64,000 nucleotides of DNA from an uncultured Chloroflexia bacterium (GTDB taxonomy: Bacteria; Chloroflexota; Limnocylindria; Limnocylindrales; CSP1-4). The DNA is taken from assembly GCA_963833535.1 (NCBI GenBank), contig CAWHYC010000006.1, positions 41,574-105,573 on the forward strand, in the 5' to 3' direction. Made by a program: the position numbers and the translations under genes. The notes under the pieces are model-generated. The model was not told the DNA's origin and searched no databases. It saw only the letters and a list, made by a program, of their open reading frames with translations. Positions 24,787 to 44,984 of this stretch are shown one piece after another (the first letter of the stretch is position 1; each line of letters opens with the position of its first letter).

Positions 24787-24838
24787 GGATCGCGTGTCGT
24801 CGGCTGGCCCGATGCCGATCACGGGTCGCCCCGCTCGA

Positions 24839-26290
24839 TCACGGCGCGCCGCGTTCGTGCAGCCGGCCACCGTCCAGCTCCAGGACACGATCCGCGAAGG
24901 CGGCCACGAAGCGCGCGTCGTGCGAGACCGCCACGACGGCCATCCCATCGTCGGCACGCGACCGCAGCAGGTCGAGGAGCGCGATCACGCCGTGCCGGTC
25001 CTGGGCGAAAGTGGGCTCGTCCAGGACGAGGAGCCGCGGCCGACGCAGGAGTGCCGGGGCCAGCGACAGCCGGCGCTGCTCACCGCCGGACAACCGGTAG
25101 GGCGAGCGCGGCCCGAAGATCTCGAGCGGCAGTCCGAGCTCGGCCATCAGCGTAGCCGTGGCCGACGCCAGCTCGGGCGTTCCTGGCAGCCCCAGACGGA
25201 CCTCTTCGTCGACCGTCGTGGCCAGGAAGCCGAGCTCGGGGTCCTGGAAGACGAGGCCCGCCAGCGCCGCCCGTTCGCCCGCTGGTCGGCCATAAGGGGC
25301 GATGCCGCCGATCGCGATCTGGCCGGCATCCTGCTGCACGAGGCCGACCAGGAGCCGTGCCAGGGTCGACTTGCCGCTGCCGTTGGCGCCGACGATGGCC
25401 ACGCGTTCGCCGGCCGCGACAGCCAGCCCGAGGCCGCGAAGCACGGGCGGTCCACCGCGATAGGCGTAGACCAGGTCGCGCACCTCGACGAGCGGTCGGT
25501 CGCCGTCCCCGGCGGGCGACAGACCGGCGCGCACGACGGCGGACGGCCTGGCGCTCGGCGCGGGTTCGAGCCAGCGCGGCAGCCAGACGCCAGCCTCGAT
25601 CAGCTCGGCCGCCTGGCCCGCCGCCACATCGCCTGGGTTGCCACATGCCAAAGGCCGACCATCTCGACCCAGGACGAGCAGCCGATCGGCGAGCGCCCAG
25701 ACATCGTCGACGCGGTGCTCGACGACGACCATCGTCGCCGTGCCGCCGGCCTTGAGGACAGCCAGGCGCGAGATGAAAGCCGCCGCAGCAGCCGGATCGA
25801 GGTTCGCCGTCGGCTCATCGAGCACCAACAGCGCGGGCTCCGGCGCCAGGGCACCGGCCAACGCCAGCCGTTGGCGCTGCCCACCCGATAGCATGGCAGC
25901 GACTGCCCGTCGGCGATCGGCCAGCCCGACGTCATCCAACGCCTCGGGCACACGACGCCGCATCCGGTCCAGCGGCCAGCCGCGCGACTCGAGACCGAAG
26001 GCGACGTCGTCCTCGACGCGCTCCATGACCAGCTGTCGATCGGCGTCCTGGAAGACCAGCCCGCGATCGCCGCTGCCACACTCCAGGGTGCCCAAGGCTC
26101 GCCCTGGGATGTCGCCACCAAGGAGGCCGGCCAGACCGAGTGCCAGCGTGCTCTTGCCCGATCCGCTCGGACCGAGGACCAGCATGACCTCGCCCGGCGC
26201 GAGGTCGATGTCGACGTCCTGGACGGCCGGTCGCTCGGCTCCGGCGAAGCGAAAGCCGTACCCTTCGGCGTGGATCGAGGCCGCCGTCAG
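24839..26290 (-). CDS. ecfA: ECF transporter fused ATPase (EcfA–EcfA' duplicated ABC domains)
   Basis: Two Walker A sites (GPSGSGKST and GANGSGKST) and two LSGGQ signatures. The N-terminal about 35 aa lack a canonical start codon in frame, so the 5' end is uncertain (CTG/ATC candidates). Confidence 0.75.
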   Translation of the reverse strand: MTAASIHAEGYGFRFAGAERPAVQDVDIDLAPGEVMLVLGPSGSGKSTLALGLAGLLGGDIPGRALGTLECGSGDRGLVFQDADRQLVMERVEDDVAFGLESRGWPLDRMRRRVPEALDDVGLADRRRAVAAMLSGGQRQRLALAGALAPEPALLVLDEPTANLDPAAAAAFISRLAVLKAGGTATMVVVEHRVDDVWALADRLLVLGRDGRPLACGNPGDVAAGQAAELIEAGVWLPRWLEPAPSARPSAVVRAGLSPAGDGDRPLVEVRDLVYAYRGGPPVLRGLGLAVAAGERVAIVGANGSGKSTLARLLVGLVQQDAGQIAIGGIAPYGRPAGERAALAGLVFQDPELGFLATTVDEEVRLGLPGTPELASATATLMAELGLPLEIFGPRSPYRLSGGEQRRLSLAPALLRRPRLLVLDEPTFAQDRHGVIALLDLLRSRADDGMAVVAVSHDARFVAAFADRVLELDGGRLHERGAP

Positions 26291-26850
26291 GGCGTCGCCT
26301 CAGGCAGCGCCCCCGATCGTCGGACGGCGCGCTCGATGGCCATCGCCGCCAGCGGCAGGACGATCGCCCCGGAGATCGCCATCGCGATGGCGATGGCCAG
26401 CACGGCCTCGGGTGCGTAGTCGCGGTAGTAGACCGCCCAGTCGTGGACGAAGGCTGCGGCCGTCGCGGCCAGCGACGCTGCCACGACGACCGGCAGGTCG
26501 TAGCGGCGATACCGAGTAGCGGCGAAGACCAGCTCCGCCGCGGTGCCCTGCAGGAGGCCAGATACGAGCGTGTCCACCGCCCACTGCGAGCCCAGGAACA
26601 TCGACACGAAGGCCGCCACGAGCTCGGCGAAGATCGCCGCGCCGGGCTTGCGGACGAGAAGTGGCGCCACGATCGCCGGCAGCAGCCAGCCCGCGTAGAG
26701 GACCGACTGCGCCGGGCCGAGGACGGCCAGGCCGGCCCACACCAACCCGAACGCCCAGAAGAAGACGCCGAAGGCGACGGCGATGACGGCCACGACCAGG
26801 ATGTCGCGGGTCTGCCAACGCGCATCGACCGGGGGATCGGTGGTGGTCAC
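26287..26850 (-). CDS. ECF transporter S (substrate-specific) component, thiamine-related by context
   Basis: About 188 aa with six TM segments. GTG start overlapping the TPK stop. It lies between the TPK and EcfA genes, downstream of a TPP riboswitch. Confidence 0.6.
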   Translation of the reverse strand: MTTTDPPVDARWQTRDILVVAVIAVAFGVFFWAFGLVWAGLAVLGPAQSVLYAGWLLPAIVAPLLVRKPGAAIFAELVAAFVSMFLGSQWAVDTLVSGLLQGTAAELVFAATRYRRYDLPVVVAASLAATAAAFVHDWAVYYRDYAPEAVLAIAIAMAISGAIVLPLAAMAIERAVRRSGALPEATP

Positions 26851-27539
26851 GGGAGCACCTCCGGATGAGCGACGACCTCGATGACGAGCAGCCGGCCGGA
26901 TGCCACGCGGATGCGTGTGGCCGTGGTCGTTCGAACGTTGGACAGGCCGCGTGTCGAGCCGGCCGGCAGTGGCTCCGCCGCCAGCGGGTAGGCCAGCCCG
27001 TCCGTGCGAACGGCGCCGACGTCGCCACCGCTGGGCAGCAGGCTGACCAGGTCCCCCACCCGACCCGCCAGAGTCACGTCGGCCGGGCCACGAACCAGGC
27101 GTGTCCGACTGACCCCATCGAGGAGGACGACGTCGCTGCCGGCCAGCTCGGCCAGGCCCAGCAGCCCGACATTGGCCAGGGCGTGGTCCGGGCGCCGCCC
27201 GCCCAACGCGCCGAGGATGACGATACGGCCAGGTCGATGGCGAAGGGCGGCGCGCACGGCAAGCTCGGTGTCTGAGGCGTCCTTGTCGCGCGGCCACGTT
27301 TCGATCCCGACGCCGGCGGCCCGTAGCGCCGCCAGGCGGTCGTCGTCGATCGAGTCGAGATCGCCGACCAGCTCGTCGACCGCGAGCCCCAGCTGCGCGG
27401 CGCCATGAGCACCGCCATCCGCTGCCACGACCAGGCGGCGGCCATCGCTCCAGCCAGGCCAGGCGGCGTCGATCACCGCTCGCTGAGGGACCGCGCCACC
27501 GGCGACCACGACGGCGACATCGGGGACGTCGGCGGTCAT
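26847..27539 (-). CDS. thiamine pyrophosphokinase
   Basis: TPK catalytic-domain motifs (VVAADGGA, LGALGGRRPDH) and the C-terminal thiamine-binding domain. Confidence 0.8.
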   Translation of the reverse strand: MTADVPDVAVVVAGGAVPQRAVIDAAWPGWSDGRRLVVAADGGAHGAAQLGLAVDELVGDLDSIDDDRLAALRAAGVGIETWPRDKDASDTELAVRAALRHRPGRIVILGALGGRRPDHALANVGLLGLAELAGSDVVLLDGVSRTRLVRGPADVTLAGRVGDLVSLLPSGGDVGAVRTDGLAYPLAAEPLPAGSTRGLSNVRTTTATRIRVASGRLLVIEVVAHPEVLP

Positions 27540-27617
27540 GCGGCCACGCTGGTGGCGGGTGGTTCGGTCACGGACACGGTCGACCTCCGGATGCTCACGG
27601 GACGGAGGTCGCGTGGA

Positions 27618-27706
27618 GACTCCCTTCGCTGGTACGAACCAGATCAGGTTCCGAGGGTCTGCGGGCGAGCCGCACTCTCAGCGCCTTTCGGCGCTCCCCT
27701 GTCCCA
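27618..27706 (-). promoter_or_regulatory. TPP (THI-box) riboswitch
   Basis: The minus-strand sequence is gggacaggggagcgcc..ggcgcugagag...acccucggaaccugaucugguucguaccagcgaagggag. It matches the conserved CUGAGA, ACCC-GAACCUGAUC and ACCAGCG-AGGGA elements. It lies about 80 nt upstream of the TPK start. Confidence 0.85.
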
Positions 27707-27728
27707 TCTTCGTGCTGGTCGCCGGATG

Positions 27729-30672: not shown

Positions 30673-31601
30673 GCGATCGACCTCGACGCATACAGGCTCG
30701 CCCGATGAGCGCCCCGAAGACGCCATCGCCGGGGCGCCCGAGGCGCGGGCTGATCGCCCTTGGCGTGATCGTCGCGGCGGTGCTCCTCACCGTGGTCGGG
30801 CTGAGCGGCCTGCGAGGCGGAGGGTCGGCGTCGACCGCGACCCCATCGGCCGCCGTAGGGGGATCGGACGCTGGCACCCTTGGCACGCCGGCGGCCTCGA
30901 CCGCGTTCCCGACCGCGTCGCCTGGCGCGACGCGGTCGCCCGTGACGAGCGCCTCGCCATCGACAAACCTCTCCGCGACCACGAGCCCATCGGCGCCGCC
31001 GGCGACCGGCGCGTCCACCCCGGCGGCTCCGACCTCGGCCGCCGGCTTCGCCCTTCGCAAGACGGTCATCGACATCGCATTCCCCTTCCGGGCGACGGTC
31101 GGCTACCGGTACTCGGACCGCTTCCTGGCCCCCAGGGTCGGGGTCACACGGCGCTTCAACCACGCCCGCGGTGTCTCGGGAAGCGGCCGCCTCCTGCGCG
31201 CGCACGATGGAGTCGACCTGCGCGCCAAGCGGGGGACTCACGTCTACGCGGCCTTCTCGGGCACGGTCATCGACCCGGCCACGCGCTGGAAGCCATGGGA
31301 CGTCCCGCGATACGGCAAGTACGTGGCCATCGTCTCCGACGAGCCGACCAGTCCGGGCTACGCCGTCATCTACGCCCACCTGGCATCGGTGGCCGTCGCG
31401 ATCGGCGACCATGTCGAGCGCGGTCAATGGATCGGCCGGGTCGGCAATACCGGCAATGCCGCAAGCGAGCCACCCCAACTGCACGTCGAGCTGCGGGCGC
31501 CGTTCCGCATCCCGGTCCGGGAGGGTGGCCGGAACCGGCGCATCGATGCCTTCGACCCATTGCCCAGCCTCCTGGCGGCCGATCCGAAGCGTAAGCACTG
31601 A
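30669..31601 (+). CDS. M23-family metallopeptidase (peptidoglycan endopeptidase)
   Basis: TM anchor, a Pro/Ala/Ser linker, and the M23 motifs HDGVDL...YAHL...PHLHVE-like (QLHVEL). Confidence 0.8.
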   Translation: MSDRPRRIQARPMSAPKTPSPGRPRRGLIALGVIVAAVLLTVVGLSGLRGGGSASTATPSAAVGGSDAGTLGTPAASTAFPTASPGATRSPVTSASPSTNLSATTSPSAPPATGASTPAAPTSAAGFALRKTVIDIAFPFRATVGYRYSDRFLAPRVGVTRRFNHARGVSGSGRLLRAHDGVDLRAKRGTHVYAAFSGTVIDPATRWKPWDVPRYGKYVAIVSDEPTSPGYAVIYAHLASVAVAIGDHVERGQWIGRVGNTGNAASEPPQLHVELRAPFRIPVREGGRNRRIDAFDPLPSLLAADPKRKH

Positions 31602-31635
31602 GCGGGTCCCCCTCGCGGGGCGGGACCATCCGGTC

Positions 31636-34569
31636 ATGGCAAGCGTTGGTAGGTCAGCGCAGACTCGGCGCTCGGCCACCTACCAAGACCTGCCATCGGA
31701 GTCGACCACGGATCCGTTGCCCGCGCTCGGCGAGCGCACCGTCAGCGTCGCGCTGGCGGCGCGCATCCTGGGCGTCCACGCCAACACCGTCCGGACCTGG
31801 ACCCAGCAGCAGCGGCTGCCTGTCCTGCGCATCAACGCGCGCGGTGACCGCCGCTATCGCGTCGCCGACCTGGAGGCCTTCCTGGCGGCCGCGCAGGAGT
31901 CGCCACGGACGCAGCGTGGCGGACGAGGGTCCAGGGTGGCGGCCGACTTCGGCCTCGCCCGCGCCGAGGGCGCGCCTGGCGATCGGCGCAGCCGCGAGCT
32001 GCACGTACTCGGTGAGATCGCGCAACTGACGGCGCACATCAGCGACCTTGACACCGCCCTGCATCGCATCTGCCAGCTGTTGCGCGACGCGTTCGACTAT
32101 CGGCTGGTCGGCGTCGCACAGGTGCGCGACGGCGTCATCGTGGCACGCGTCGCGCATGGCGTGCCGGTCGACCGCCTGCCGGTCATGCCCCTCGGATCGG
32201 GCATCGTCGGGACCGCCGTCGCCGACGGCACGACGGTCTTGGCGCCTGACGTTCGACGGGATCCGCGCTACGTCGAGATCCTGCCCGAGATCGCGTCCGA
32301 GATGGTCGTCCCCATCGTAGGTCCCGATGGCACCTGGGGTTGCATCCTCGCCGCGCACACCAAGCCAGGCGGCCTCGGCATCGATGACGTCGGGTTGCTC
32401 GAGGCGGTCGCCCACCAGATCGCTGCCGCCATCGAGACGGCCGGCCTGATGCAGCGGCTCGAGCGCCAGCTGGAGCTGGCGGAGGCGCTTCGACGGGTCA
32501 GTGCGGACATCAGCTCCAAGCTCGACCTCCAGGTCATCCTGGCCGAGACGGTCGACCAGGCCACGACCCTCTTCGGTGCCGACCGGGCGGCCGTCTTCCG
32601 CCTGCGGGCCGGTGGCACCTTCGAGGCCCCGGTCGCCAGGGGCCTGTCCGAGCGCTACCTCCAGCGCGTCGCGGACCTGCCTTCGCCGTCGCTGCCGCGC
32701 CTGGCGATGGAGACCGGCGAGGCGCTCTTCGCGACCGGGTACGCCGATGACCCACGCGGGCTCGGCGTCCGGGATGCCGTCATCGAGGAGGGCTTCGACA
32801 CGGTCGCGGTGGCGCCGCTGGTGGCCGAGGGTCGATCGCTCGGCGTGCTCGTCCTCTACCACGACCGTCGCCGGCCGTGGTCGAACCCGGAGCTGGACGC
32901 GCTCAAGGCGCTCGCCGCCCAGGCCAGCATCGCCATCCAGAACGCCGGCACCTATGCCCAGATGGCACGCTGGGCGGCGCAGCTCCAGTCGATCCAGCAG
33001 CTCGGTACGCGCCTCGATCGGATGAGCAGCGTGCGCGACATCGGCATGGCCATCGCGGTCGAGCTCCAGCAGCTCATCGACTACCACAACGTGCGTGTCT
33101 ATCGCGTCGTGGGGGACGACTGCCAGCCGGTCGCCTGGCGCGGCAACATCGGCGAGTACACGGACGAGGTCGAGGACGAGCTCCGCCTCAAGGTCGGCGA
33201 GGGCATCACCGGCTGGGTGGCCGCGCATGGTGTCGCGCAGTACCTGCCCGACGCCAATGCCGACGACCGCGCCCAGACCATCGTGGGCACTGACACGATC
33301 GACGAGTCGATGCTCATCGCGCCCATGATCTTCGAGCAGCGCGTCATGGGCGTCATCGTCCTTTCCAAGCTCGGGCTCCACCAGTTCTCGAGCGACGACC
33401 TGCGACTGCTCGAGATCTACGCCTCCCTGGCGGCCCAGGCGATGGCCAATGCCGACGCCGCCGAGCAGCTCCGCGATCAGTCGGCGACGCTCGAGCGCCA
33501 GCTCCGGAGCCAACGCGAGCTGCTGCGGATGACAGAATCGATCTTCGCCTCGCTCGACCCGCACGTCGTCCTGGACGAGATCGCCAGCCGCCTCGTGGGC
33601 CTGGTCCCGGTCGACAACATCGGCATCGACAAGCTCGATCGCATCGCCGGCGAGTTCGTGCCGGTCGTGGCGCGCGGCGTCGACGAAGCCGAGTATCGCG
33701 GCCGCCGGCTGAAGATCGGCGAGGGCGTCGCCGGCTGGGTGGCCGAGCATGGCGAGGGCCAGCTGGTCCTCGACGAGCTGGCCGATCCCCGTGTCGCCCA
33801 CTTCGAGGCCGTCGGGCCGGAGGCAGGCTCGCTCATCGTGGTGCCGCTCCGCGGTCGCGACGGGACCGTCGGCGTGCTGACGCTCGAGCGGCTGGGTACC
33901 TCCGCCGCCTTCACGACCGAGGAGTTCGAGCTCGTGCAGCTCTTCGCCGCGCAAGCGTCGATCGCGATGCAGAACGCGGAGCTGCACGCGGACGTCGTGG
34001 TCCAGGCGCAGACCGACGGCCTGACCGGGCTCCTCAATCACGCCACTTTCACGGCCGACCTGGGGCGAGCCGTGGCGAGCGGCGAACGTTTTGGCCTGAT
34101 CATGCTCGACCTGGACGATTTCAAGGGCTTCAACGACACCCTCGGCCACCCGACCGGGGACCTGCTCCTGCAGGGCATCGCGAGAGCGCTGACCTCAGCC
34201 GGCCGGGACTCCGATCGGGCCTACCGCTACGGCGGTGACGAGTTCGTGCTCATCCTGCCGGGCACCGACGCCGCCGGCGCGCGGGCCGTCGCCGACCGCG
34301 TCCGTCGCGCGGTGCACGAGGAGGGTGGACTGCGCGGGGCGGGCGGCGAAGTCGAGGTCACCTGTTCGACGGGCGTGGCCGCCTTCCCAGGCGACGGTGC
34401 GGACGCGACCGCCATCCTGAGCGCCGCGGACCGCGCCTGTTTCCTGGCCAAACGCAATGGTCGCGACCGCGTGGCGACGGCGGGCGAGGCAGCCGCTGTG
34501 GGCGGCGATCTCGTGCCCGGCGCGACGACGCCCATCGACACGCCCAGTGCGCCGAGGTCGGCTGCCTGA
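31636..34569 (+). CDS. diguanylate cyclase with an N-terminal MerR/excisionase-type HTH and four GAF domains
   Basis: HTH (ARILGVHANTVRTW), four GAF-like repeats, and a C-terminal GGDEF domain with an intact GGDEF and an RxxD-like I-site context. The ATG at 31636 was chosen as the start; the upstream ORF extension overlaps the M23 gene. Confidence 0.8.
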   Translation: MASVGRSAQTRRSATYQDLPSESTTDPLPALGERTVSVALAARILGVHANTVRTWTQQQRLPVLRINARGDRRYRVADLEAFLAAAQESPRTQRGGRGSRVAADFGLARAEGAPGDRRSRELHVLGEIAQLTAHISDLDTALHRICQLLRDAFDYRLVGVAQVRDGVIVARVAHGVPVDRLPVMPLGSGIVGTAVADGTTVLAPDVRRDPRYVEILPEIASEMVVPIVGPDGTWGCILAAHTKPGGLGIDDVGLLEAVAHQIAAAIETAGLMQRLERQLELAEALRRVSADISSKLDLQVILAETVDQATTLFGADRAAVFRLRAGGTFEAPVARGLSERYLQRVADLPSPSLPRLAMETGEALFATGYADDPRGLGVRDAVIEEGFDTVAVAPLVAEGRSLGVLVLYHDRRRPWSNPELDALKALAAQASIAIQNAGTYAQMARWAAQLQSIQQLGTRLDRMSSVRDIGMAIAVELQQLIDYHNVRVYRVVGDDCQPVAWRGNIGEYTDEVEDELRLKVGEGITGWVAAHGVAQYLPDANADDRAQTIVGTDTIDESMLIAPMIFEQRVMGVIVLSKLGLHQFSSDDLRLLEIYASLAAQAMANADAAEQLRDQSATLERQLRSQRELLRMTESIFASLDPHVVLDEIASRLVGLVPVDNIGIDKLDRIAGEFVPVVARGVDEAEYRGRRLKIGEGVAGWVAEHGEGQLVLDELADPRVAHFEAVGPEAGSLIVVPLRGRDGTVGVLTLERLGTSAAFTTEEFELVQLFAAQASIAMQNAELHADVVVQAQTDGLTGLLNHATFTADLGRAVASGERFGLIMLDLDDFKGFNDTLGHPTGDLLLQGIARALTSAGRDSDRAYRYGGDEFVLILPGTDAAGARAVADRVRRAVHEEGGLRGAGGEVEVTCSTGVAAFPGDGADATAILSAADRACFLAKRNGRDRVATAGEAAAVGGDLVPGATTPIDTPSAPRSAA

Positions 34570-34601
34570 CCGATCCGGCCGGCGGTCGGTACCATCGTCG
34601 C

Positions 34602-35360
34602 GTGAGCGCGAACCGCGTCTCAGGCCCAAGGCCTCGCATCCTGGTCACCGTCCAGGCACCATCGGTCGCCGCGGACGCCGACCTGGCGCGGCTCAAGAAC
34701 GGCCGCTACCTGGAGCAGGTCGAGGCCGCCGGTGGCCAGCCGACGACCATCGACGAGACCGCCAGCGAGTCGGAGCGACGCGCCGCCTTCGCGGCCATGG
34801 ATGGCCTCTTGCTCTCGGGCGGCGCCGACCTGGATCCGGCTCTCTACGGCCAGCCGGTCGCCGGCTCGCGCGACATCGAGCCCGGCCGCGACGCCCTCGA
34901 GCTGGCCGCATGGCAGGCAGCCGCGGAGCGCGGCCGACCGGTGCTCGGCATCTGCCGCGGCATCCAGGCCATCAACGTCTTCGCCGGCGGCGGACTCATC
35001 CAGGACCTCGACGGCCACGGCAGCCCGGCCTACGGATCGGGTCCCGCCAAACTCCACCCCATGCGCGTCAGCCGCGCCTCTCGCCTGGCGCGCATCCTGC
35101 GCCCGGCCGATCCAGGTGATCTCGTGCTGCAAGTCAATACCTACCACCACCAGGGCTTCAGCCGCGACCAGCTGGCGCCCGGACTGGCCGTGGCGGGGAC
35201 CGCGACCCATCCGGCGGGCGAGATCGTCGAGGCCGTCGAATCGGCCGGCCGGGGCCAGCTCATCCTCGGCATCCAATGCCACCCCGAGCGCACGGAGTCG
35301 ACGCCGCCTGAGTTCGCACGCCTCTTCGCCTTCTTCGTCGACGCGGCTCGCGCCACCTGA
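34602..35360 (+). CDS. class I glutamine amidotransferase-like hydrolase (PuuD / peptidase C26 family)
   Basis: Catalytic triad context GICRG ... H..ER (QCHPE). Confidence 0.75.
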   Translation: MSANRVSGPRPRILVTVQAPSVAADADLARLKNGRYLEQVEAAGGQPTTIDETASESERRAAFAAMDGLLLSGGADLDPALYGQPVAGSRDIEPGRDALELAAWQAAAERGRPVLGICRGIQAINVFAGGGLIQDLDGHGSPAYGSGPAKLHPMRVSRASRLARILRPADPGDLVLQVNTYHHQGFSRDQLAPGLAVAGTATHPAGEIVEAVESAGRGQLILGIQCHPERTESTPPEFARLFAFFVDAARAT

Positions 35361-35384: not shown

Positions 35385-36239
35385 TCAACGGTTGGCCAGG
35401 TCGATGAGGATGGGCGGGACCCAGAGCTCGGAGATGGCGGTCGTGAAGCCGAGCACGGTCAGGATGAGGAACTGGGCCAGGAAGTAGCCGATCACGAGCT
35501 TGTCGGCACGGTCGTAGACGAGGTGCTTGAGCCAGGTCCGCTTGCCGGTCCCGAAGCCACGCAGGTCCATGGCGTCGATGGTGTCCTCGGCGCCGACGAG
35601 CGCATTGATGACCGACGGTACGACCACCGGCATGGTGTTGCGCAGGCGCGCGATCGGACCGCCCTTGGCATCTTGCCAATCGTGGCCTCGGACGCGTTGT
35701 GCATCGGCGGTCGTCTGCATGTCGTTGGCCAGGGAAGGCAGGAAGCGGAAGGTCAGGTCGATGGCGAAGGCGAACTTGTCGGGCACGCCGAGCCGCCGGA
35801 AGGCGATCCCGAAGTCATCCGGAGCCATGGCGTAGGCGACCGGGAAGCCGGCCATCGTCATGGCCAGGAAGCGCAGCAGCTGGGTCCCTGCATAGGCCAG
35901 GGACTGTGCCGAGATCGGCGTGCCCAGCAGGGGCATCGTGAAGAAGACGTCGTAGTCGCCGGTGTAGTTGGGCACGACGCCGTTGGTGATGAGGGTGTTG
36001 ACCAGGACGAGCAGTGTCACGAAGAAGAGGACGAAGGCCCACTGCCGGCGGACCTCGGCCCACGGGATGGATGCCGAGCGGTAGTAGAGGAACGCGACGA
36101 GGAGCAGGAAGAGGACGACGCGGGCGTCCCACATCTGGACCACGGTAAAGACGAAGATGAAGAGGACCAGGACGAGGACCCGGGGATCGCGGCGAGCCAG
36201 CCACGACCCCCGGCCCAGGTAGCGCGGGGCGAAGTTCAT
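35385..36239 (-). CDS. ecfT: ECF transporter T component (EcfT)
   Basis: TM topology and EcfT-like coupling motifs. It is the last gene of the second ECF operon. Confidence 0.75.
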   Translation of the reverse strand: MNFAPRYLGRGSWLARRDPRVLVLVLFIFVFTVVQMWDARVVLFLLLVAFLYYRSASIPWAEVRRQWAFVLFFVTLLVLVNTLITNGVVPNYTGDYDVFFTMPLLGTPISAQSLAYAGTQLLRFLAMTMAGFPVAYAMAPDDFGIAFRRLGVPDKFAFAIDLTFRFLPSLANDMQTTADAQRVRGHDWQDAKGGPIARLRNTMPVVVPSVINALVGAEDTIDAMDLRGFGTGKRTWLKHLVYDRADKLVIGYFLAQFLILTVLGFTTAISELWVPPILIDLANR

Positions 36240-36271
36240 GGCTCGCCCCGTGCTCGACGATGCGTGTTGAC

Positions 36272-36850
36272 CTAGCGGCCCATGCGCTCCTTGATGGGCT
36301 CCCAGATGAAGACCAGGATGGGCACCACGATGGCCGTCGAGATGAGGTTGGTCGTGATGACCGGGATGTACTCCGTGGTCAGGACGGTATTGAAGTCATA
36401 CCCGCCCAGGATCATGTCCGTCCAGATGAAGACGAAGCCCACGAGCGTGGCTACCACGCCGGCGATGGCGCCGCCGAGGGCCTTCTGGGGGAGCGTACCG
36501 TTCATCAACCGGGCCAGGTAGAGCGGAGCCAGACCGGCGATGAGTCCGACGAAGCCGTTGGCGAGGCTCCAGTTCCACGACGTCAGGGCGCCCCAGCCGG
36601 AGATCTGGTCGCCGATGGCGTTGCCGACGGTGCCGGTGAAGAAGCCGACGATGGGCCCGAAGGCATAGCCGAAGAAGCTGACCAGGCCGAAGGCCGGCCG
36701 GAGACTGACGTCCTTGGTGCCGGGGATCGGGATCTGGATGACCAGCAGCAGGCCGTACAGGACGGCCCCGATCGCGGCGTAGACGACGACGCGCGACGAG
36801 ACCTCCCAGAGCGTTTGCCGGGTGTTGCCAGACATCTGCATCGTTGCCAT
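36272..36850 (-). CDS. ECF transporter S component, unknown specificity
   Basis: About 192 aa with six TM helices. It lies between the fused EcfAA' and EcfT genes. Confidence 0.6.
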   Translation of the reverse strand: MATMQMSGNTRQTLWEVSSRVVVYAAIGAVLYGLLLVIQIPIPGTKDVSLRPAFGLVSFFGYAFGPIVGFFTGTVGNAIGDQISGWGALTSWNWSLANGFVGLIAGLAPLYLARLMNGTLPQKALGGAIAGVVATLVGFVFIWTDMILGGYDFNTVLTTEYIPVITTNLISTAIVVPILVFIWEPIKERMGR

Positions 36851-36867
36851 GAGCGTTCCCTTCCCTC

Positions 36868-38688
36868 CTATGGCCGGCTGGCCGCCACGACCGCCAGCCG
36901 CTCCGCGTCGACGAACCCTCCATCCGCCGGCGCCCAACGCGCGTTGGCCTGCATCAACGTCGTTTCGCGCAGATTGCATGCCCTCCATCGATCGAGGTCG
37001 GCGACGACCTTCGCCGGAGGTCCGTCGGCCACGACGCGACCCTCTCGAAAGAGCAGGATACGGTCTGCGTGCGTGAGCGCAAGGTCCACATCGTGAGTCA
37101 CGATGTACAGGCTCTCGATCCCAGGGATGGCACGGACCTGGGCCATGAAGCGCGTCGCGCTGGCGTGATCCTGGCCGGCCGAGGGCTCATCGAGGATCAG
37201 CGTCCGGGGCTGCATGCAGAGCGCGATGGCGATCGACAGCCGCTTCTGCTGGCCGAACGAAAGCGTCATCGGGGGTCGTTCGAGGATGTCCTCCTCGGCG
37301 TCGAGGCCGACGCGTGCCAGGGCGTCGCGCATCAGCTCGTCGAACGTGGTCGCGTCGGCGCCGAGGTTGCGTGGCCCGAAGAGCAGCTCCTCCTGGACGG
37401 TCCGCGCGAAGAACATCTGGCTGGGACTCTGGAAGACGTAGCCGAAGGTGCGTGCCATCTCGGCGACGCGACGCTGAGCGGTGTCCTCGCCGTCGCATGC
37501 GATGGCGCCGCCCATCAGCGCCAGCAGCTTCATGGCCGCCTTGAAGAGTGTGGTCTTGCCCGAGCCGTTGGGTCCCAACAGCGCGACCGTCTCGCCGGCG
37601 CCCAGACGCGCGCTGACGCCGTGCAGGATCTCGCGGTCACCATAGCCAGCACGGACGTCGGTGTAGGCGAGGCGAGGCGGGCGCAGCTCGCTGGGGACAG
37701 CTCCGGGATCCTCCGTCGACGCCGGGCCCGTCTCGCCCGACCGCGCGTGTGGCGAGTCGGCGATGCGCACCGGCTCGCGTGCGATCGTCGGCCCGGCCGA
37801 TGCCGCGGCGTGTGCGCGACGGCGGACCTGCTCCACGATGGCCGCGAAGGGCAGCTTGACGAGCGCCGGATCGGCGATCTCGAGGAAGCCGTCGACCGGG
37901 CCCAGGTAGGCGGTCGCGCCGCGCTCCATGTATAGGACGCGATCGGGGCGCAGTTCGAGCGCCTCCTCGACGCGATGCTCGACGATGACCACGGCGCTGC
38001 CCTCGTCGGCCATCCGTCGCAGGATGGCCAGGAGCTGCGAGGCGCTCGCGGGATCCAGGTTGGCGAGTGGCTCGTCCACGACGTAGAGCTTCGGCCGCAT
38101 CATCAGGATGCCGCCAACAGCCACCAGCTGACGCTCACCGCCCGACAGCGCGGCCGTCTCCCGGCCCGACAGGTGACCGATGCCGGTCCGCTCGAAGACC
38201 TCACGGATCCCGTCGCGGATGACCTCACGCGGCACGGCCAGGTTCTCGGGCCCGAAGGCCAGCTCGGCCTCGACGGTCGCGCCGACGATCTGTCGCGCCG
38301 GATCCTGCAGGACGGTGCCGACGACCTGCGCCAGGTCGCGCAAGCGGAGCTCGGCCACGGGCCGACCCTCGATGCGCACCTCGCCACTCGATGCGCCCTT
38401 GTAGGCGTGTGGGATGAGGCCGTTGATGCCGCGGATGAGCGTGCTCTTGCCGCAGCCAGAGGGCCCGGCCACCAGGAGGACCTCGCCGGCCTCGACGGTC
38501 AGTGAGACGTCGCGGACCGCCGGCTGACTGGCGCGACGGTAGGTGAACGTGAATCCCTCCAGCCGCAGGAGCGGCGCGACCGGGACACCGGTCGGTGACG
38601 TCGTGGCGCCAGGGCTGGACATGATCGGCGTCCCGGCGCCGTGCGCAGCCTCCCTGAGCCCGGCCTCTCCCTGCGGTGTCGCGGTCAC
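36868..38688 (-). CDS. ecfA: ECF transporter fused ATPase (EcfA–EcfA')
   Basis: Two ABC domains (GPSGCGKST...LSGGERQ...VVDEP and GPNGSGKTT...LSFGQQKR...ILDEP). Confidence 0.85.
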   Translation of the reverse strand: MTATPQGEAGLREAAHGAGTPIMSSPGATTSPTGVPVAPLLRLEGFTFTYRRASQPAVRDVSLTVEAGEVLLVAGPSGCGKSTLIRGINGLIPHAYKGASSGEVRIEGRPVAELRLRDLAQVVGTVLQDPARQIVGATVEAELAFGPENLAVPREVIRDGIREVFERTGIGHLSGRETAALSGGERQLVAVGGILMMRPKLYVVDEPLANLDPASASQLLAILRRMADEGSAVVIVEHRVEEALELRPDRVLYMERGATAYLGPVDGFLEIADPALVKLPFAAIVEQVRRRAHAAASAGPTIAREPVRIADSPHARSGETGPASTEDPGAVPSELRPPRLAYTDVRAGYGDREILHGVSARLGAGETVALLGPNGSGKTTLFKAAMKLLALMGGAIACDGEDTAQRRVAEMARTFGYVFQSPSQMFFARTVQEELLFGPRNLGADATTFDELMRDALARVGLDAEEDILERPPMTLSFGQQKRLSIAIALCMQPRTLILDEPSAGQDHASATRFMAQVRAIPGIESLYIVTHDVDLALTHADRILLFREGRVVADGPPAKVVADLDRWRACNLRETTLMQANARWAPADGGFVDAERLAVVAASRP

Positions 38689-39476
38689 GCGGCTCGGATG
38701 AGGATGCGGTCGCCTTCGCTGACCCCCAGCCGCTCGGCGGCCGAGGCCTGGTTGAGCGCGAGGCAGAGCCGGCCGTCGGAATCCTCGAAGAGCAGCGCCT
38801 CGCCGGGTGCGACCCGCCCGAATGTCTCGGCCCAGACGAGCTCCAGCGCACCAGCGCGCAGAGCCATGCCGGTCCTGAGGGGTCCCAGCACCGCCGCCAG
38901 GTCGGCCGGCTCTGCGCCGAGATAGAGGTTGCCGAACGAGTCGACCGTGACCACCGCCACCTGCAGGCCATCATCGAGCGCCTCGGGCCGCACCGGCGGC
39001 AGCTCCACAAGGCTCGTCGGGTCGACCGCCCGACCGAACGACTCGATGGGCACGCCGGCCGCGAGGTGCCCGGCCGCCGGGGCGAAGACGTCGCGCCCGT
39101 GGAAGGTCGTGGTCACCACCGGCAGGCGATAGTCGGCTACCTCGAGGGCGTGGACGCGCCGGATGCCCCCGAGCCGCTCAGCCGCCGAAATGAGCACGCC
39201 GTTGTCCGGGCCGACGAGGACATCGCCGCGGGCGACCTCGATCGCGACGCCGAGTCGCTCGGTGCCGACGCCCGGATCGACGACCGCGAGGTGCGTCCCG
39301 ACCGGCAGCCAGGGCAGGCCGTACCACAGCGCGAGCGACCCGGCGCGGACATCGAAGGCAGGCACGTTGGCGGTCAGGTCGATGACCGTAGCCCGCGGCG
39401 CGATGGTCAGGATGACGCCGCGGCAGATGGCGGTCGCCACGGGTCCGAAGTCGGCAGTCACGCTGATGAAGGCCAC
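38685..39476 (-). CDS. SAM hydroxide adenosyltransferase (DUF62 / SAM hydrolase family), paralog 1
   Basis: N-terminal ISVTADFG and the conserved VVDPGVGTER, GPDNG and DSFGN motifs of the fluorinase/chlorinase/SAM-hydrolase family. GTG start. Confidence 0.75.
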   Translation of the reverse strand: MAFISVTADFGPVATAICRGVILTIAPRATVIDLTANVPAFDVRAGSLALWYGLPWLPVGTHLAVVDPGVGTERLGVAIEVARGDVLVGPDNGVLISAAERLGGIRRVHALEVADYRLPVVTTTFHGRDVFAPAAGHLAAGVPIESFGRAVDPTSLVELPPVRPEALDDGLQVAVVTVDSFGNLYLGAEPADLAAVLGPLRTGMALRAGALELVWAETFGRVAPGEALLFEDSDGRLCLALNQASAAERLGVSEGDRILIRAA

Positions 39477-39487
39477 CTCGACTTCCC

Positions 39488-40381
39488 TCAGGCGCGGCTG
39501 AGCGACAGGCTGAGGCCCTCGCGCAGGCCCAGGACCTGAGCGCCCGAGGCCTGGTTGGCGGCCAGGCAGATGCGCCCATAGGCGTCCTCGTAGGCCAGCG
39601 GCCCGCCCTTCGGCACGCGTCCGAACGTCTCCACCCAAGGCACGACCACGGTCTGCTCGGCCGATCCGTCCGTCCATCGCAGGCGCAGCGGGTCGTCTGG
39701 AGCGAGCGCGCCGACAGCCGCCTCGAGGTCGGCGACCTCGCCGACGAGCTTGACGTTGCCGAACGAGTCGACGTACACGATGGCCGTCTCGAGCGCGCCG
39801 GGGCGTACGCGCGCGATCGGCCACTCCAGCCGCGCCAGCGTGGCCGGGTCCAATGCGCGCCCGAAGGCCTCGATGGGCACACCGTTGGCTAGGTGCGCGC
39901 CGGCGGGCGCGAAGATGTCCCGCCCGTGGAAGGATGTCGAGACGTCGGGCAGCTGGTATTCGCGTGCCTCGAGCCGGTGGGCGGCCGTGATGCCGCCGAG
40001 CCGTTCGGCGGCCGGGATGAGCAGCCCGTTGTCCGGGCCGACCAGGACGTCGCCACGGGCGGTCGCCAGGGCCAGGGGGTGACGCTCGGTCCCGACACCC
40101 GGGTCGACCACGGCGACGTGGGCGCCGACCGGCAGGTAGGGCAGCGTCGCCCAGAGCGTCACGGCGCCGTCGCGGATCTTGAACTTGGCGATCTCGGCGG
40201 TCACGGTCATGACCGTCGCCGTCGGAGCGATGGCGTGGACGACCCCGACACAGATGGCCGTCGATGGATCCCGGGCGCCGAAATCGGTGGTCAGGCTGAC
40301 GAACGGCCGCCCGCGACCAGCCGATGGGTCGGCCGCCAGCGCCGCGGGCGTGGTCTCGGGCTGCAGGAACGTCCTGGGCAT
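39488..40381 (-). CDS. SAM hydroxide adenosyltransferase (DUF62), paralog 2
   Basis: The same motif set (SLTTDFG, VVDPGVGTER, GPDNG, DSFGN). It sits in tandem with paralog 1. Confidence 0.75.
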   Translation of the reverse strand: MPRTFLQPETTPAALAADPSAGRGRPFVSLTTDFGARDPSTAICVGVVHAIAPTATVMTVTAEIAKFKIRDGAVTLWATLPYLPVGAHVAVVDPGVGTERHPLALATARGDVLVGPDNGLLIPAAERLGGITAAHRLEAREYQLPDVSTSFHGRDIFAPAGAHLANGVPIEAFGRALDPATLARLEWPIARVRPGALETAIVYVDSFGNVKLVGEVADLEAAVGALAPDDPLRLRWTDGSAEQTVVVPWVETFGRVPKGGPLAYEDAYGRICLAANQASGAQVLGLREGLSLSLSRA

Positions 40382-40437
40382 GGCGCGGATGGTAACGGCC
40401 GTCCAGCGTCGACGCGACCGGGGTACGCTTCGGGAAC

Positions 40438-41438
40438 GATGACCATGAACCGCGACCGGGGCGGCCTCAAGTGGGACAGGGCGGCCCGCTACCTCAAGGT
40501 CGCGATGATCCTGCACGCCCATCCCGAGGGCATCAGCGCCCAGCAGATCGCCGACCAGATCGGGGTCTCCAAGCGCACCGCCTATCGCGATCTGCAGGCC
40601 ATGGACAACGATGCCGAGCTGCCTATCTGGCAGGACAAGGGTCGCTGGGGCCTGGAGGCCGGCGCCTTCCTGCCGCCGCTCAACCTGACGACGCATGAGG
40701 CGATGGCCCTCTTCCTCGCAGCACGTGTGCTGGCCAAGGCGAGTGACGAGCTCGACAGCGAGCTGATCGCCGCCTTCCTCAAGCTCGGTGGCGTCCTGCC
40801 CGGTGTGCTCGGCGAACACGTCCAGTCGACCATCGACGCGTTCGCCGCGACCCGAACCGTGGACGAGCACTTCACGCGGGTGCTGCGCACGCTGACCGAG
40901 GCCTGGGCTGGGCGTCGCGTCGTCGAGATCGTCTACGGCGCCGGGGTCTACGACACGGCCAAGGAGGTCCGGCGGGCCCGCGTGCGTCCGTACCTCGTGG
41001 AACCCTCCGCCCTGACCCATGCGCTCTATCTCATCGGCTGGGACGAGGCGCGACAGGCGCGACGCACCTTCAAGGTCGAGCGCATCCTCGAGGCTGCGCT
41101 GACACCAGACACGTTCGAGCCGGACGCCGGCTGGGACCCGCGTATCGGCCATGCGCGACGGTTGGGACGTCATCGCCGACCAACCCATCGAGGTCATCGC
41201 GGTGCGCTTCTCGCCGACCGTCGCGCGACGCGTGGCGGAGACGACCTGGCATCCCAGCCAGCGGCTCGAGTGGCATCACGACGGCAGCCTGACATGGCAC
41301 GGCCGGGTGGCCGGGACGCACGAGATCCGTATCTGGATCCTGGGCTGGGGAGCCGACGCCACGGTCGTGGCCCCGCGCGCGCTGCGCGACTCCGTTGTCG
41401 ACGAGCTCGCCCGGGCCGTCGCTGCCTACGAGGCCTGA
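40438..41438 (+). pseudogene. HTH–WYL-domain transcriptional regulator (YafY-like) with an apparent +1 frameshift near 41140–41160
   Basis: N-terminal HTH (ISAQQIADQIGVSKRTAYRDLQ) and a WYL-like middle region in one frame. The conserved C-terminal domain (WDVIADQPIEVIAVRFSP...WHPSQRLE) continues in the +1 frame from 41151. Confidence 0.55.
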
Positions 41439-41940: not shown

Positions 41941-43383
41941 TCAGACTGCCTTGACGGCGGCGATCAGCTCGGCCAGGCCGGCCTTGGCGTCGGCGAAGAA
42001 CATGGCCGTCTTGGGGTTGACATAGAGCTCGTTGTCGATGCCAGCGTAGCCACGGCCCATCGAGCGCTTGATGACGATGATGCTCTTGGCCTGGTCGACG
42101 TCGAGGATGGGCATGCCCGAGACCGGCGTGCCGGGCCGCCGCGCGGCCGGGTTGGTGACGTCGTTGGCACCGATGACCAGGGCCACGTCGCAGCGCGGGA
42201 ACTCGGGGTTGATCTCCTCCATCTCCTTGAGCTGCGGGTAGGGCACGTTGGCCTCGGCCAGCAGCACGTTCATGTGGCCGGGCATGCGCCCGGCGACGGG
42301 ATGGATGGCGTACTTGACGTCGACCCCGCGCGACTCGAGGAGCTCGGCCAGCTCCCGGACGCCATGCTGCGCCTGGGCCACGGCCAGGCCGTAGCCGGGC
42401 ACGATGATGACGCTGCTGGCGTAGGCCAGCTGGATGGCAGCATCGTCCGCGGACACCGAGCGGACCGAGCCGCCGGGTCCACCAGCGTCGGCGACCGTGC
42501 CCTCGCCGCCGCCGAAGCCGCCGGCGATGATGTTCAGGATCGAGCGGTTCATGGCATCGGCCATGAGCTTGGTCAGGATGCCGCCCGAGGCACCGACCAG
42601 CGCGCCGGCGATGATGAGGACCGGGTTGCCGATGACGAAGCCGGCCATCGCGGCGGCGGTGCCGGTGAACGAGTTGAGCAGCGAGATGACGACCGGCATG
42701 TCGGCGCCGCCGATGGGCAGGACCATGGTCACGCCGAAGGCCAACCCGGCCAGGACCACGGCGGCCAGGATGGCCACGCTGGTCGTGGCGTCGAGGGTCA
42801 GCACGCCGGCCGAGCTGAGCACCAACGCGAGCAACCCGACCACGGCCACTGCGGCCAGCAGGAAGGTCACCGCGCGGCCGCCCGGGATATGGATCGGCTT
42901 GCCCGAGATGACGCCCTGCAGCTTGCCCGACGCGATCAGCGAGCCGGAGAAGGTGACGCAGCCGATGACCGCGCCGAGGACCACGAAGATCGACGTCGAG
43001 ACGGTCGCCTCCGGGGTGCCGACGATGTGCAGGTAGTCGTCGATGGCGACCAGCGCCGCCGCGCCACCGCCGACCGCGTTGAAGAGCGAGACCAGCTGCG
43101 GCATGGCCGTCATCTGCACGGTCCGGGCCATCCACAGGCCGACGCCGCCGCCGATGGCGAAGCCGACCACGATGATGACGATGGCCGTCGTGCTCAGACC
43201 GCCTGGCCGGGTGGCCAGGTACGGGATGGTCACCAGGACCGCCAGCGTCATGCCGCCGGCCGAGAGGCGGTTGCCGGACCGCGCCGTGGCCGGCGAGTTC
43301 ATCTGGTGCAGCCCGAGCACGAAGCAGGCGGCGCCGGCCAGCCAGGCCAGGAAGACGAAGGTGTAGATCCACTCCTGGGACAT
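41941..43383 (-). CDS. pntB: NAD(P) transhydrogenase subunit beta
   Basis: Multi-TM N-terminal domain and the C-terminal NADP(H)-binding dIII domain (GYGLAVAQAQ...). Confidence 0.9.
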   Translation of the reverse strand: MSQEWIYTFVFLAWLAGAACFVLGLHQMNSPATARSGNRLSAGGMTLAVLVTIPYLATRPGGLSTTAIVIIVVGFAIGGGVGLWMARTVQMTAMPQLVSLFNAVGGGAAALVAIDDYLHIVGTPEATVSTSIFVVLGAVIGCVTFSGSLIASGKLQGVISGKPIHIPGGRAVTFLLAAVAVVGLLALVLSSAGVLTLDATTSVAILAAVVLAGLAFGVTMVLPIGGADMPVVISLLNSFTGTAAAMAGFVIGNPVLIIAGALVGASGGILTKLMADAMNRSILNIIAGGFGGGEGTVADAGGPGGSVRSVSADDAAIQLAYASSVIIVPGYGLAVAQAQHGVRELAELLESRGVDVKYAIHPVAGRMPGHMNVLLAEANVPYPQLKEMEEINPEFPRCDVALVIGANDVTNPAARRPGTPVSGMPILDVDQAKSIIVIKRSMGRGYAGIDNELYVNPKTAMFFADAKAGLAELIAAVKAV

Positions 43384-43697
43384 CAGTCGCCCTCGGTCGG
43401 CTTGGCGGGGGCGACCGGCTTCTTGCGGAACATCTGGAGCATCCGGTCCGTGACCACGTAGCCACCGACCACGTTCATCGAGCCGAAGAGGACGGCGATG
43501 AAGGCCAGCGCATACGAGACCGGGTTGTCGGCCGTGGCGGCGATGAGCATGCCGCCCACTAGGACGATGCCGTGGATCGAGTTGGCGCCCGACATCAGCG
43601 GCGTGTGCAGCGTGGCCGGGACCTTGCTGATGACCTCGAAGCCGACCAGGATGGCCAGCACGAAGATGGCCAGTGCGTTGAGCAGCTCGGGGCTCAT
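43383..43697 (-). CDS. pntAB: NAD(P) transhydrogenase subunit alpha part 2 (membrane)
   Basis: About 100 aa with three TM helices. ATGA overlap with pntB. Confidence 0.8.
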   Translation of the reverse strand: MSPELLNALAIFVLAILVGFEVISKVPATLHTPLMSGANSIHGIVLVGGMLIAATADNPVSYALAFIAVLFGSMNVVGGYVVTDRMLQMFRKKPVAPAKPTEGD

Positions 43698-44854
43698 GCG
43701 GCACCTCCCGCGGCGGGCGCCGGCTCGAGGAGCTTGCGAGTGGCTTCCTGGACGACCGCGCCACCGGTCGCGATGACCGTGGCGGCAGTGATCTCGTCGC
43801 TCATATCGAGCGGCAGGGCGCCGTCCTTGACCAGGTGGCGCACCAGCTCGTAGACGTTCCGCGCGTAGAACGCGGACGCGCCGGCGGGCATCGATGCCGG
43901 CAGGTTGTCCGGTGCGATGATCGTCACGCCATTGTCGGTCACGGTCGTCTCGCCGGCGCGCGACAGCTCGACGTTGCCGCCCAGCGCGCTGGCCGCCATG
44001 TCCACGATGATCGAGCCGCTCTTCATCGCCCGCACCGCGTCGGCTGTGACCAGCAGCGGCGGCCGGCGGCCGGGCACCTGTGCCGTGGTGATGACCACGT
44101 CCATGTTCGCGATGTGGCCGTTCAGCTCGTCCTGCTGGGCTTTCTGCTCCTCGGCGGTCAGGGCGCGGGCATAGCCGCCCTCGCCGGTCGCATCGACGGC
44201 CGACTTGAGGACGATGAAGCCGGCGCCGAGCGACTCGGCCTGCTCCTTCGTCTCCTTGCGCACGTCGTAGGCCTTGACGATGGCACCCAGGCGGCGGGCG
44301 GTGCCGATGGCCTGCAGCCCCGCGACGCCGATGCCCAGGATGAGCACGTTGGCCGGCTTGGCCGTTCCTGCGGCCGTCGTCAGCAGCGGGAAGTAGCGGC
44401 CATAGGCTGCGGCCGCGATGAGCACCGCCTTGTAGCCGCCGACGTTGGCCTGCGAGCTCAGCGCGTCCATCGTCTGCGCCGAGCTGAGCATGCGTGGCAG
44501 GGCGTCGAGGCTGATGGCCGTCACGTTGCGATCGGCCAGCGTCCTGGCCGTGGCCGGATCGATGAGCGGCGTCAGCAGGCCGACGACCGCCTGGCCGGGC
44601 CGCAGGCTGGCGACCTCGTCGGCGTCCGGCTTGGCGACGCGCAGCACGATGTCGGCCTGCGCGTAGAGGGCCTCGGTCGAGACCACGGTCCCGCCGGCCT
44701 CGGCATAGGCGCTGTCGGGGATCAGCGCACCGGCGCCAGCGCCCGCCTCGACGAGCACCTCGAGGCCTGCCGCCTGGTACTTCCCGATGAGCTCGGGCAC
44801 GAGGGCCACGCGACGCTCGGAGGGCGCGCGCTCTCGGACGACTCCAACCTTCAT
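43694..44854 (-). CDS. pntAA: NAD(P) transhydrogenase subunit alpha part 1 (NAD(H)-binding dI)
   Basis: Alanine-dehydrogenase-like dI fold (VLILGIGVAGLQAIGTARRLGA). Confidence 0.85.
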   Translation of the reverse strand: MKVGVVRERAPSERRVALVPELIGKYQAAGLEVLVEAGAGAGALIPDSAYAEAGGTVVSTEALYAQADIVLRVAKPDADEVASLRPGQAVVGLLTPLIDPATARTLADRNVTAISLDALPRMLSSAQTMDALSSQANVGGYKAVLIAAAAYGRYFPLLTTAAGTAKPANVLILGIGVAGLQAIGTARRLGAIVKAYDVRKETKEQAESLGAGFIVLKSAVDATGEGGYARALTAEEQKAQQDELNGHIANMDVVITTAQVPGRRPPLLVTADAVRAMKSGSIIVDMAASALGGNVELSRAGETTVTDNGVTIIAPDNLPASMPAGASAFYARNVYELVRHLVKDGALPLDMSDEITAATVIATGGAVVQEATRKLLEPAPAAGGAA

Positions 44855-44984
44855 GCGGGGAACCCTTGTCGTACGTGGTCGATATCGCCGGTAAGGATAG
44901 CGGGTCAGGGTGCTCGTAACGGGCTGCCAGCGTGTCTCCTGGACCGCCATCAGAGCGCACTCTTATAGTGTTATGATACTAGCC

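Follow-up and report, generated by a model that had tools for sequence, protein, structure and literature searches.

What are two genes of the S-adenosylmethionine (SAM) hydrolase family doing at the head of a transporter operon? The question is raised by a locus at positions 35385-41438 of a 64,000 nucleotide (nt) stretch of contig CAWHYC010000006.1 from an uncultured Chloroflexia bacterium. We call this whole stretch the window, and positions are numbered within it unless a related locus (given by an L number) is named. The SAM hydrolase family is also known as DUF62, and its proteins reportedly occur in roughly one in five bacteria and two in five archaea. In the window a tandem pair of DUF62 genes is followed by the genes of an energy-coupling factor (ECF) transporter. 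The answer toward which we lean, if only modestly, is that the operon encodes a dedicated ECF importer of adenosyl compounds of the SAM or S-adenosylhomocysteine (SAH) type, which would be cleaved in the cytoplasm by DUF62.

The operon consists of five tightly packed minus-strand genes (35385-40381), in a window of about 70% G+C. The lead gene is DUF62-up (39488..40381), encoding 297 amino acids (aa), and its tandem paralog is DUF62-dn (38685..39476; 263 aa). The latter has a GTG start codon 9 nt past the stop codon of DUF62-up, with GAGGGAAG immediately 5′ of that start. The third gene encodes a fused EcfA-EcfA' (EcfAA') ATPase of 606 aa with two ABC_tran domains (36868..38688), and its own GTG start overlaps the stop codon of DUF62-dn (GTGA). 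After a gap of 17 nt comes the S component (36272..36850; 192 aa), a member of the PF07155 family to which no specificity has been assigned, and 32 nt further on the transmembrane coupling component EcfT (35385..36239; 284 aa). The ATPase scores 320 bits against TIGR04521 and 319 bits against TIGR04520. EcfT scores 86.5 bits against PF02361 (CbiQ) and 63 bits against TIGR02454, the latter being under the cutoff of that model. Pfam and NCBIfam identify the DUF62 domains, the double ABC domain and the CbiQ-type T component without ambiguity. The A and A' domains and the T and S components thus lie in one strand-contiguous operon, as in a group I ECF transporter. An earlier note on this DNA, made from its letters alone, had described a DUF62 pair followed by a fused ATPase, an S component and EcfT, and each of these genes was found where it had been placed.

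We have asked whether the DUF62 proteins have the character of hydrolases or of the related halogenases. Both paralogs combine domains PF01887 and PF20257 above the gathering cutoffs, at 147.6 bits (E = 2.8e-43) and 44.5 bits (2e-11) for DUF62-up, and 134 bits (3.5e-39) and 57 bits (2.4e-15) for DUF62-dn. The profile search with PF01887 suggested earlier therefore places both in the family. They match members of solved structure with E values of 1e-30 to 1e-37 and 30-40% identity, the best solved relatives of DUF62-up being SalL and PH0463 (E = 1e-35 to 1e-30). The family motifs TDFG, VVDPGVGTER, GPDNG and DSFGN, noted previously, are all present, the first of them reading TDFG/ADFG. An Asp-Arg-His triad that activates water is described in a review as strictly conserved in the DUF62 SAM hydrolases and missing from the halogenases (PMC10491745). 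This triad is retained in both copies, where VVDPGVGTER and (S/T)FHGRD align to DPGVGTER and FHGRD of PH0463; in DUF62-up the Asp and Arg lie within VVDPGVGTER, and the His within SFHGRD. In SalL the positions of DPGVGTER and FHGRD are occupied by YPETGT and WYGKD. Both copies score only 53-60 bits against the fluorinase model TIGR04507, for which the cutoff is 400. Because the triad is kept and the fluorinase score falls far short, both paralogs look like hydrolases and not halogenases. The halogenated adenosines suggested earlier as substrates consequently lose their support, since the halogenase signatures are missing.

The two paralogs are 56% identical, and DUF62-dn has a two-residue deletion after the ribose-binding DFG motif. 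Does the pair represent an ancient division of function? A neighbor-joining tree was calculated for 92 DUF62 sequences from related loci. The two window copies are sisters in this tree, grouped with those of L007 and L008, while other clades have separate duplicates of their own. A single copy is present in some 37 of 68 loci from Limnocylindria and two copies in about 25, the remainder being fragmented; tandem pairs occur also in Anaerolineae (L088 and L126). Judged from the tree, duplication of DUF62 appears to be recurrent, and the window pair to be a recent, lineage-specific duplicate. An ancient pair with two functions was considered and rejected for the window lineage, given that the copies are tree sisters with those of L007 and L008. 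The idea in the earlier note that the paralogs differ in nucleophile or leaving-group specificity is left without support by the same recent duplication, and by the triad in both copies. Many DUF62 copies in Limnocylindria (e.g., L016, L024, L026 and L034) have Leu in place of the conserved Asp of D-x-FGN (HVL-IYGN), and these may form a sub-family with altered substrate binding. Loci with two copies often have one of the Leu type and one canonical; both copies in the window are canonical.

How general is the association of DUF62 with the transporter? The closest relatives of the locus are metagenome-assembled genomes (MAGs) labeled Candidatus Limnocylindrales or Limnocylindria, in the Chloroflexota. 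A scan of GTDB species genomes gave 80 Limnocylindria loci, of which 68 (67 plus L064) include DNA upstream of EcfAA'. DUF62 lies immediately before EcfAA'-S-T in all 68. In Anaerolineae it precedes EcfAA'-S-T in seven of the eight sampled contexts (L085/86, L087, L088/89, L117/118, L125, L126 and L127), where the S proteins are about 35-37% identical to that of the window. The pairing is found even on two plasmids of Enterococcus faecium, L120 (NZ_CP064407.1) and L123 (NZ_CP034950.1), one conjugative and one mobilizable. Each carries a DUF62-S-AA'-T cassette flanked by insertion sequences, and the plasmid S protein is homologous to the window S family with an hhalign probability of 96%. The module is not confined to the window, but is widespread. 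The gene neighborhoods, which the earlier note had wished to see compared, lend strong support to its core idea of a dedicated ECF importer coupled to DUF62 that takes up and cleaves a SAM-like compound.

Some of these contexts contain further genes. In L088 a gene resembling those of nucleoside kinases is found along with a bona fide ahcY 2.5 kb downstream, and a SET-domain gene stands just ahead of DUF62 in L117. On plasmid L120 the gene mmuM (homocysteine S-methyltransferase) and an amino-acid permease gene are located 3 kb from the cassette. The annotation of the S gene on the E. faecium plasmids names it as part of a riboflavin transporter.

We then examined the S component itself, the family of which is small, with 427 representatives at 50% identity (E <1e-3). 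The window protein contains a WNW motif. The window protein matches PF07155, 'ECF-type riboflavin transporter S component', with 68.2 bits against a cutoff of 26.7. Its best NCBIfam match is NF010182, at 78.5 bits, which is below the cutoff of 99. A profile made from 25 family members matched no solved S component, RibU included, among the sequences of the PDB. An AlphaFold2 model was calculated (pLDDT 81, pTM 0.79) and compared with known structures by Foldseek. The top 26 PDB matches are all ECF S subunits, with probabilities of at least 0.97. TmRibU is nominally first in the ranking, and the model resembles TmRibU, FolT, ThiT, PanT, HmpT and BioY about equally (TM scores 0.5-0.65, 15-21% identity). 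No flavin mononucleotide (FMN) riboswitch was found in the window. The protein consequently does not group with RibU by NCBIfam score, by sequence match, by preference of fold or by riboswitch. The model indicates a true S component of unassigned specificity, and from the gene neighborhoods it is predicted to bind an adenosyl compound of the SAM or SAH type. The earlier note had held that its idea would fail if the S component fell within a vitamin family such as RibU or FolT; the name given to PF07155 touches on this, but in substance the protein does not fall there.

A metagenome scan with a narrow S alignment revealed a sister subgroup, 44-48% identical to the window S component and found on high-GC metagenome contigs. 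The cassettes (L094, 4892-10659; L095, 646-6209; and L099, L100, L096 and L097) have the gene order AhcY, EcfAA', S, EcfT, amidohydrolase. Adenosylhomocysteinase here replaces DUF62 in its slot (431 bits, the cutoff being 275), and the stop codon of its gene overlaps the start of the ATPase gene. The amidohydrolase, of nucleoside or base deaminase type, follows EcfT and is under all NCBIfam cutoffs. Other members of the subgroup have an O-methyltransferase in the first slot. The AhcY-bearing cassette is probably a module for the uptake and degradation of SAH. Over the lineages compared, nearly all enzymes found as partners of this S family work on SAM or SAH.

The tightness of the operon, the triad in both copies, the conserved pairing and the SAM- or SAH-acting partners of the sister systems are our reasons for preferring an importer of SAM-type compounds, and from them we infer both the substrate and the inward direction of flux. 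In such a mechanism the S component would bind an extracellular adenosyl-sulfur compound of the SAM type, most probably SAM itself together with the (R,S) epimer formed on aging, and uptake would be powered by the fused EcfAA' ATPase together with EcfT, in the manner of group I ECF transporters. Both DUF62 enzymes would be made from the same, probably leaderless, mRNA. They would hydrolyze the imported sulfonium at C5′, giving adenosine and L-methionine. The AhcY-linked sister cassettes would import and cleave SAH in an analogous manner. The purpose might be salvage of methionine and purine, or removal of the inactive (R,S) epimer from scavenged SAM. The latter is suggested because aged SAM in the environment is a mixture of epimers, and the characterized DUF62 enzymes prefer (R,S)-SAM. 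The hydrolysis of SAM, with selectivity for its (R,S) epimer, is the sole activity reported for characterized DUF62 enzymes (bioRxiv 10.1101/2025.08.29.672840; PMC12120602).

Several observations weigh against this interpretation. Pfam and NCBI name PF07155 as riboflavin-type, and the connection of its S components with SAM is one that we infer. Both DUF62 copies fail two equivalog models of (R)-SAM hydrolase, scoring 151-158 bits against NF058624 (cutoff 350) and 111-120 bits against NF053629 (cutoff 470); by these scores they would be family members and not equivalogs of the (R)-SAM hydrolases. The physiological role of DUF62 is disputed, and it has been doubted that it consists of (R,S)-SAM hydrolysis (PMC12120602). 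Hydrolyzing a costly cofactor that has just been imported also looks wasteful. The association is moreover not universal. The cassettes of Anaerolineales L112-114 have thrC where DUF62 would be; PF07155 cassettes in Cetobacterium (L111), Vibrio (L109) and Bacillus (L110) have no DUF62; and numerous DUF62 genes, such as those of Listeria and Escherichia coli, lack a neighboring transporter.

What else might the operon do? SAM could be imported for direct use as a cofactor, with DUF62 acting only as a proofreader that eliminates the inactive (R,S) epimer, against which the transporter cannot discriminate. This version of the importer reading assigns the system a different purpose, and SAM carriers known from obligate intracellular bacteria provide its model. 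The selectivity of the characterized DUF62 enzymes for (R,S)-SAM would be explained, as would the company kept by the S family elsewhere, for the O-methyltransferase, the SET-domain protein and AhcY either use SAM or clear SAH. The product of mmuM, 3 kb from the cassette on plasmid L120, belongs to the other known family of (R,S)-SAM-remediating enzymes. Proofreading presents no obvious need for a tandem duplication, however, and we think it unlikely, while taking it seriously. A bolder extension of the importer reading holds that the PF07155 ECF systems are SAM and SAH importers with DUF62 as their obligate cytoplasmic partner, and that the recurrent tandem paralogs either specialize, sharing out the (S,S) and (R,S) epimers, or assemble into heterotrimers. 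Scavenged SAM, as a mixture of sulfonium epimers, would on this view need to be hydrolyzed, whether to salvage methionine and adenosine or for detoxification. We advance this extension tentatively, as possible but on balance doubtful.

Alternatively, the cargo could be some other 5′-substituted adenosine, such as methylthioadenosine (MTA), 5′-deoxyadenosine, a halogenated adenosine or a nucleoside antibiotic, with the paralogs differing in their substitution chemistry. This corresponds to the wider form of the proposal in the earlier note. The DUF62 superfamily does include fluorinases and chlorinases that act reversibly on 5′-haloadenosines (PMC10491745), and the paralogs differ in the loop that follows DFG and in a C-terminal motif. 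Yet both have the hydrolase triad, lack the YPETGT and WYGKD residues of SalL and score poorly as fluorinases, while thioethers and 5′-deoxyadenosine have, on chemical reasoning, no leaving group for bimolecular nucleophilic (SN2) displacement. With a pair that appears to have duplicated recently within its lineage, and relatives that are mostly single-copy, we regard another adenosine as improbable. Least probable of all is an ordinary importer of riboflavin or flavin beside which DUF62 has come to lie by chance. The PF07155 match, the top NCBIfam position of NF010182 and the nominal lead of TmRibU point that way, and are offset by the score below the NF010182 cutoff, the failure of the profile to find RibU or any other solved S component, and fold scores for RibU, FolT, ThiT and PanT that are almost the same. 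There is no FMN riboswitch in the window, although its thiamine ECF operon (see below) does have a riboswitch of its own. A pairing kept over two phyla and some 80 species goes beyond chance adjacency, and we consider this explanation very unlikely indeed.

Returning to the importer of SAM-type compounds, how might its expression be controlled? A divergent control region of 57 nt (40382..40438) separates the start codon of DUF62-up from the start, at 40439, of a plus-strand gene encoding an HTH-WYL-WCX regulator (40439..41438). Scanning this region for consensus promoters and terminators, and searching it for inverted repeats, gave nothing. Two elements emerged solely when upstream regions of orthologous loci were compared. 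The sequence TACCAT lies at 40389-40394 on the minus strand, ending 7 nt before the ATG of DUF62-up, and in most of the related loci listed it, or a near variant, precedes the first DUF62 start codon by 6-9 nt. It is probably a -10 box, and the mRNA would then be leaderless; on that view there is no space for a riboswitch. At about the -35 position there is a 10-bp palindrome, GCGTCGACGC (40406-40415), partly kept in L008 and L003, which is a candidate operator. In many loci (e.g., L016, L018, L022, L033 and L044) TACCAT is preceded, at a distance of about 30-50 nt, by a GC-rich hairpin CGAAGCGGCGCC...GGCGCCGCTTCG. This conserved hairpin probably serves the preceding gene as its terminator, and the window has no equivalent of it.

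The regulator gene is not intact. It is split by a +1 frameshift near 41136-41150, where alignment with the orthologs of L007 and L008 reveals one extra base, such that HTH_11 and WYL are in frame 1 and WCX (65 bits) is in a separate open reading frame (41151-41438). An assembly indel is as likely an explanation as a real pseudogene, since split genes occur in other related loci from long-read MAGs (EcfAA' in L016 and L034, EcfT in L013). The earlier note was thus right that a regulator diverges from the operon, whereas the spacing is 57 nt and not 56, and the reading frame is broken. The regulation by a WYL protein that it envisaged is favored by synteny of the gene in most Limnocylindria loci; against this, the gene is frameshifted in the window and is missing from the Anaerolineae and Enterococcus cassettes, where there is a MarR gene or nothing. 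Control of the operon by the WYL protein is accordingly no more firmly placed than plausible on the gene arrangement. Many relatives have a gene for a 396-aa protein between the WYL gene and DUF62 (L001, 5405-6595); it has no Pfam or NCBIfam match, and is absent from the window. The WYL gene shares its minus-strand gene run with the gene of a protein of about 485 aa that has only a weak HD-domain match (L001, 2092-3549); in L003 this second gene follows immediately downstream, and in L001 a CAP-domain gene intervenes.

We can now compare the system with those that are known. The window DUF62 proteins share the two-domain architecture and the Asp-Arg-His triad of the characterized enzymes (PH0463, the Salinispora DUF62 and Saci0719), but their genes are tandemly duplicated and head a transporter operon. 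No such operon context is described for the characterized enzymes in the literature that we examined; the neighbors of Saci0719 are a triphosphate tunnel metalloenzyme together with a nicotinamide mononucleotide (NMN) adenylyltransferase (bioRxiv 10.1101/2025.08.29.672840). With the group I transporters of the YkoEDC type the window system has in common an operon that combines a fused double ATPase, a T component of CbiQ type and an S component of six helices. It differs from them in lacking a riboswitch, in the leading position of an enzyme gene with the order enzyme-AA'-S-T, and in a predicted substrate that is SAM-type and not a vitamin. The PF07155/NF010182 cassettes of Bacillota, Fusobacteriota and Vibrio, which we take to be UPF0397 of UniProt and HtsTUV of Rodionov, with substrate unassigned, belong to the same Pfam family and have a fused ATPase and T component. 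Their order is S-AA'-T, the identity to the window S component is about 29%, and several have no DUF62; the cassette on the E. faecium plasmids, with DUF62 in front, resembles the window operon. MtaT was predicted as an MTA transporter family from its linkage to MTA salvage, DUF62 playing no part. As compared by description, this transporter (TCDB 3.A.1.33) is like that of the window in being an ECF system predicted from genomics only, with a SAM-derived adenosyl-sulfur cargo (PMC3654945). Finally, the HTH_11, WYL and WCX domains of the PafBC, YafY and BrxR/CapW-type factors are all detected in the regulator gene, in two frames, and the gene is similarly divergent beside its putative target operon; unlike those factors it is frameshifted, and its link to the operon is lost outside Limnocylindria. 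We know of no HTH-WYL-WCX protein that senses SAM-like ligands.

The window contains a second group I ECF-type operon on the minus strand (24055-27710), with a thiamine pyrophosphate (TPP) riboswitch at 27604-27710 (73.7 bits). Its minus-strand genes encode thiamine pyrophosphokinase (26847-27539), a YkoE-like PF09819 membrane protein (within 26287-27297), a fused double ATP-binding cassette ATPase (within 24839-26185) and a CbiQ-type T component (24055-24957), and it looks like a YkoEDC-type importer of thiamine precursors. Genes for a large HTH-GAF-GGDEF protein and a Peptidase_C26 amidotransferase (31171-35360) flank the DUF62 operon, convergent with EcfT and syntenic across Limnocylindria. 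These were considered as members of the system and rejected, being on the opposite strand and having a synteny confined to Limnocylindria. The transhydrogenase genes pntA and pntB lie beyond the WYL gene (41941-44950), and nothing ties them to the system.

A search of the literature found no publication that ties DUF62 to an ECF system, with a prior mention possible in Rodionov (2009), Kornfuehrer (2020) or Eustaquio (2008). The DUF62-ECF module is apparently widespread yet undescribed, with an S component that public annotation calls riboflavin-type. The strictly conserved link to an uptake operon leads to the hypothesis that DUF62 processes SAM from outside the cell. If that is true, these puzzling enzymes would acquire a physiological role, and the 'riboflavin transporter' label of the Pfam and NCBI annotation would be corrected. 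SAM-type compounds would gain their first ECF transporter, and SAM uptake would, to our knowledge, be extended for the first time beyond the obligate intracellular bacteria. That Enterococcus plasmids carry the cassette suggests that it confers a transferable nutritional advantage. For the Chloroflexota of soil and freshwater, such import would point to an exchange of SAM and SAH among them as public goods.

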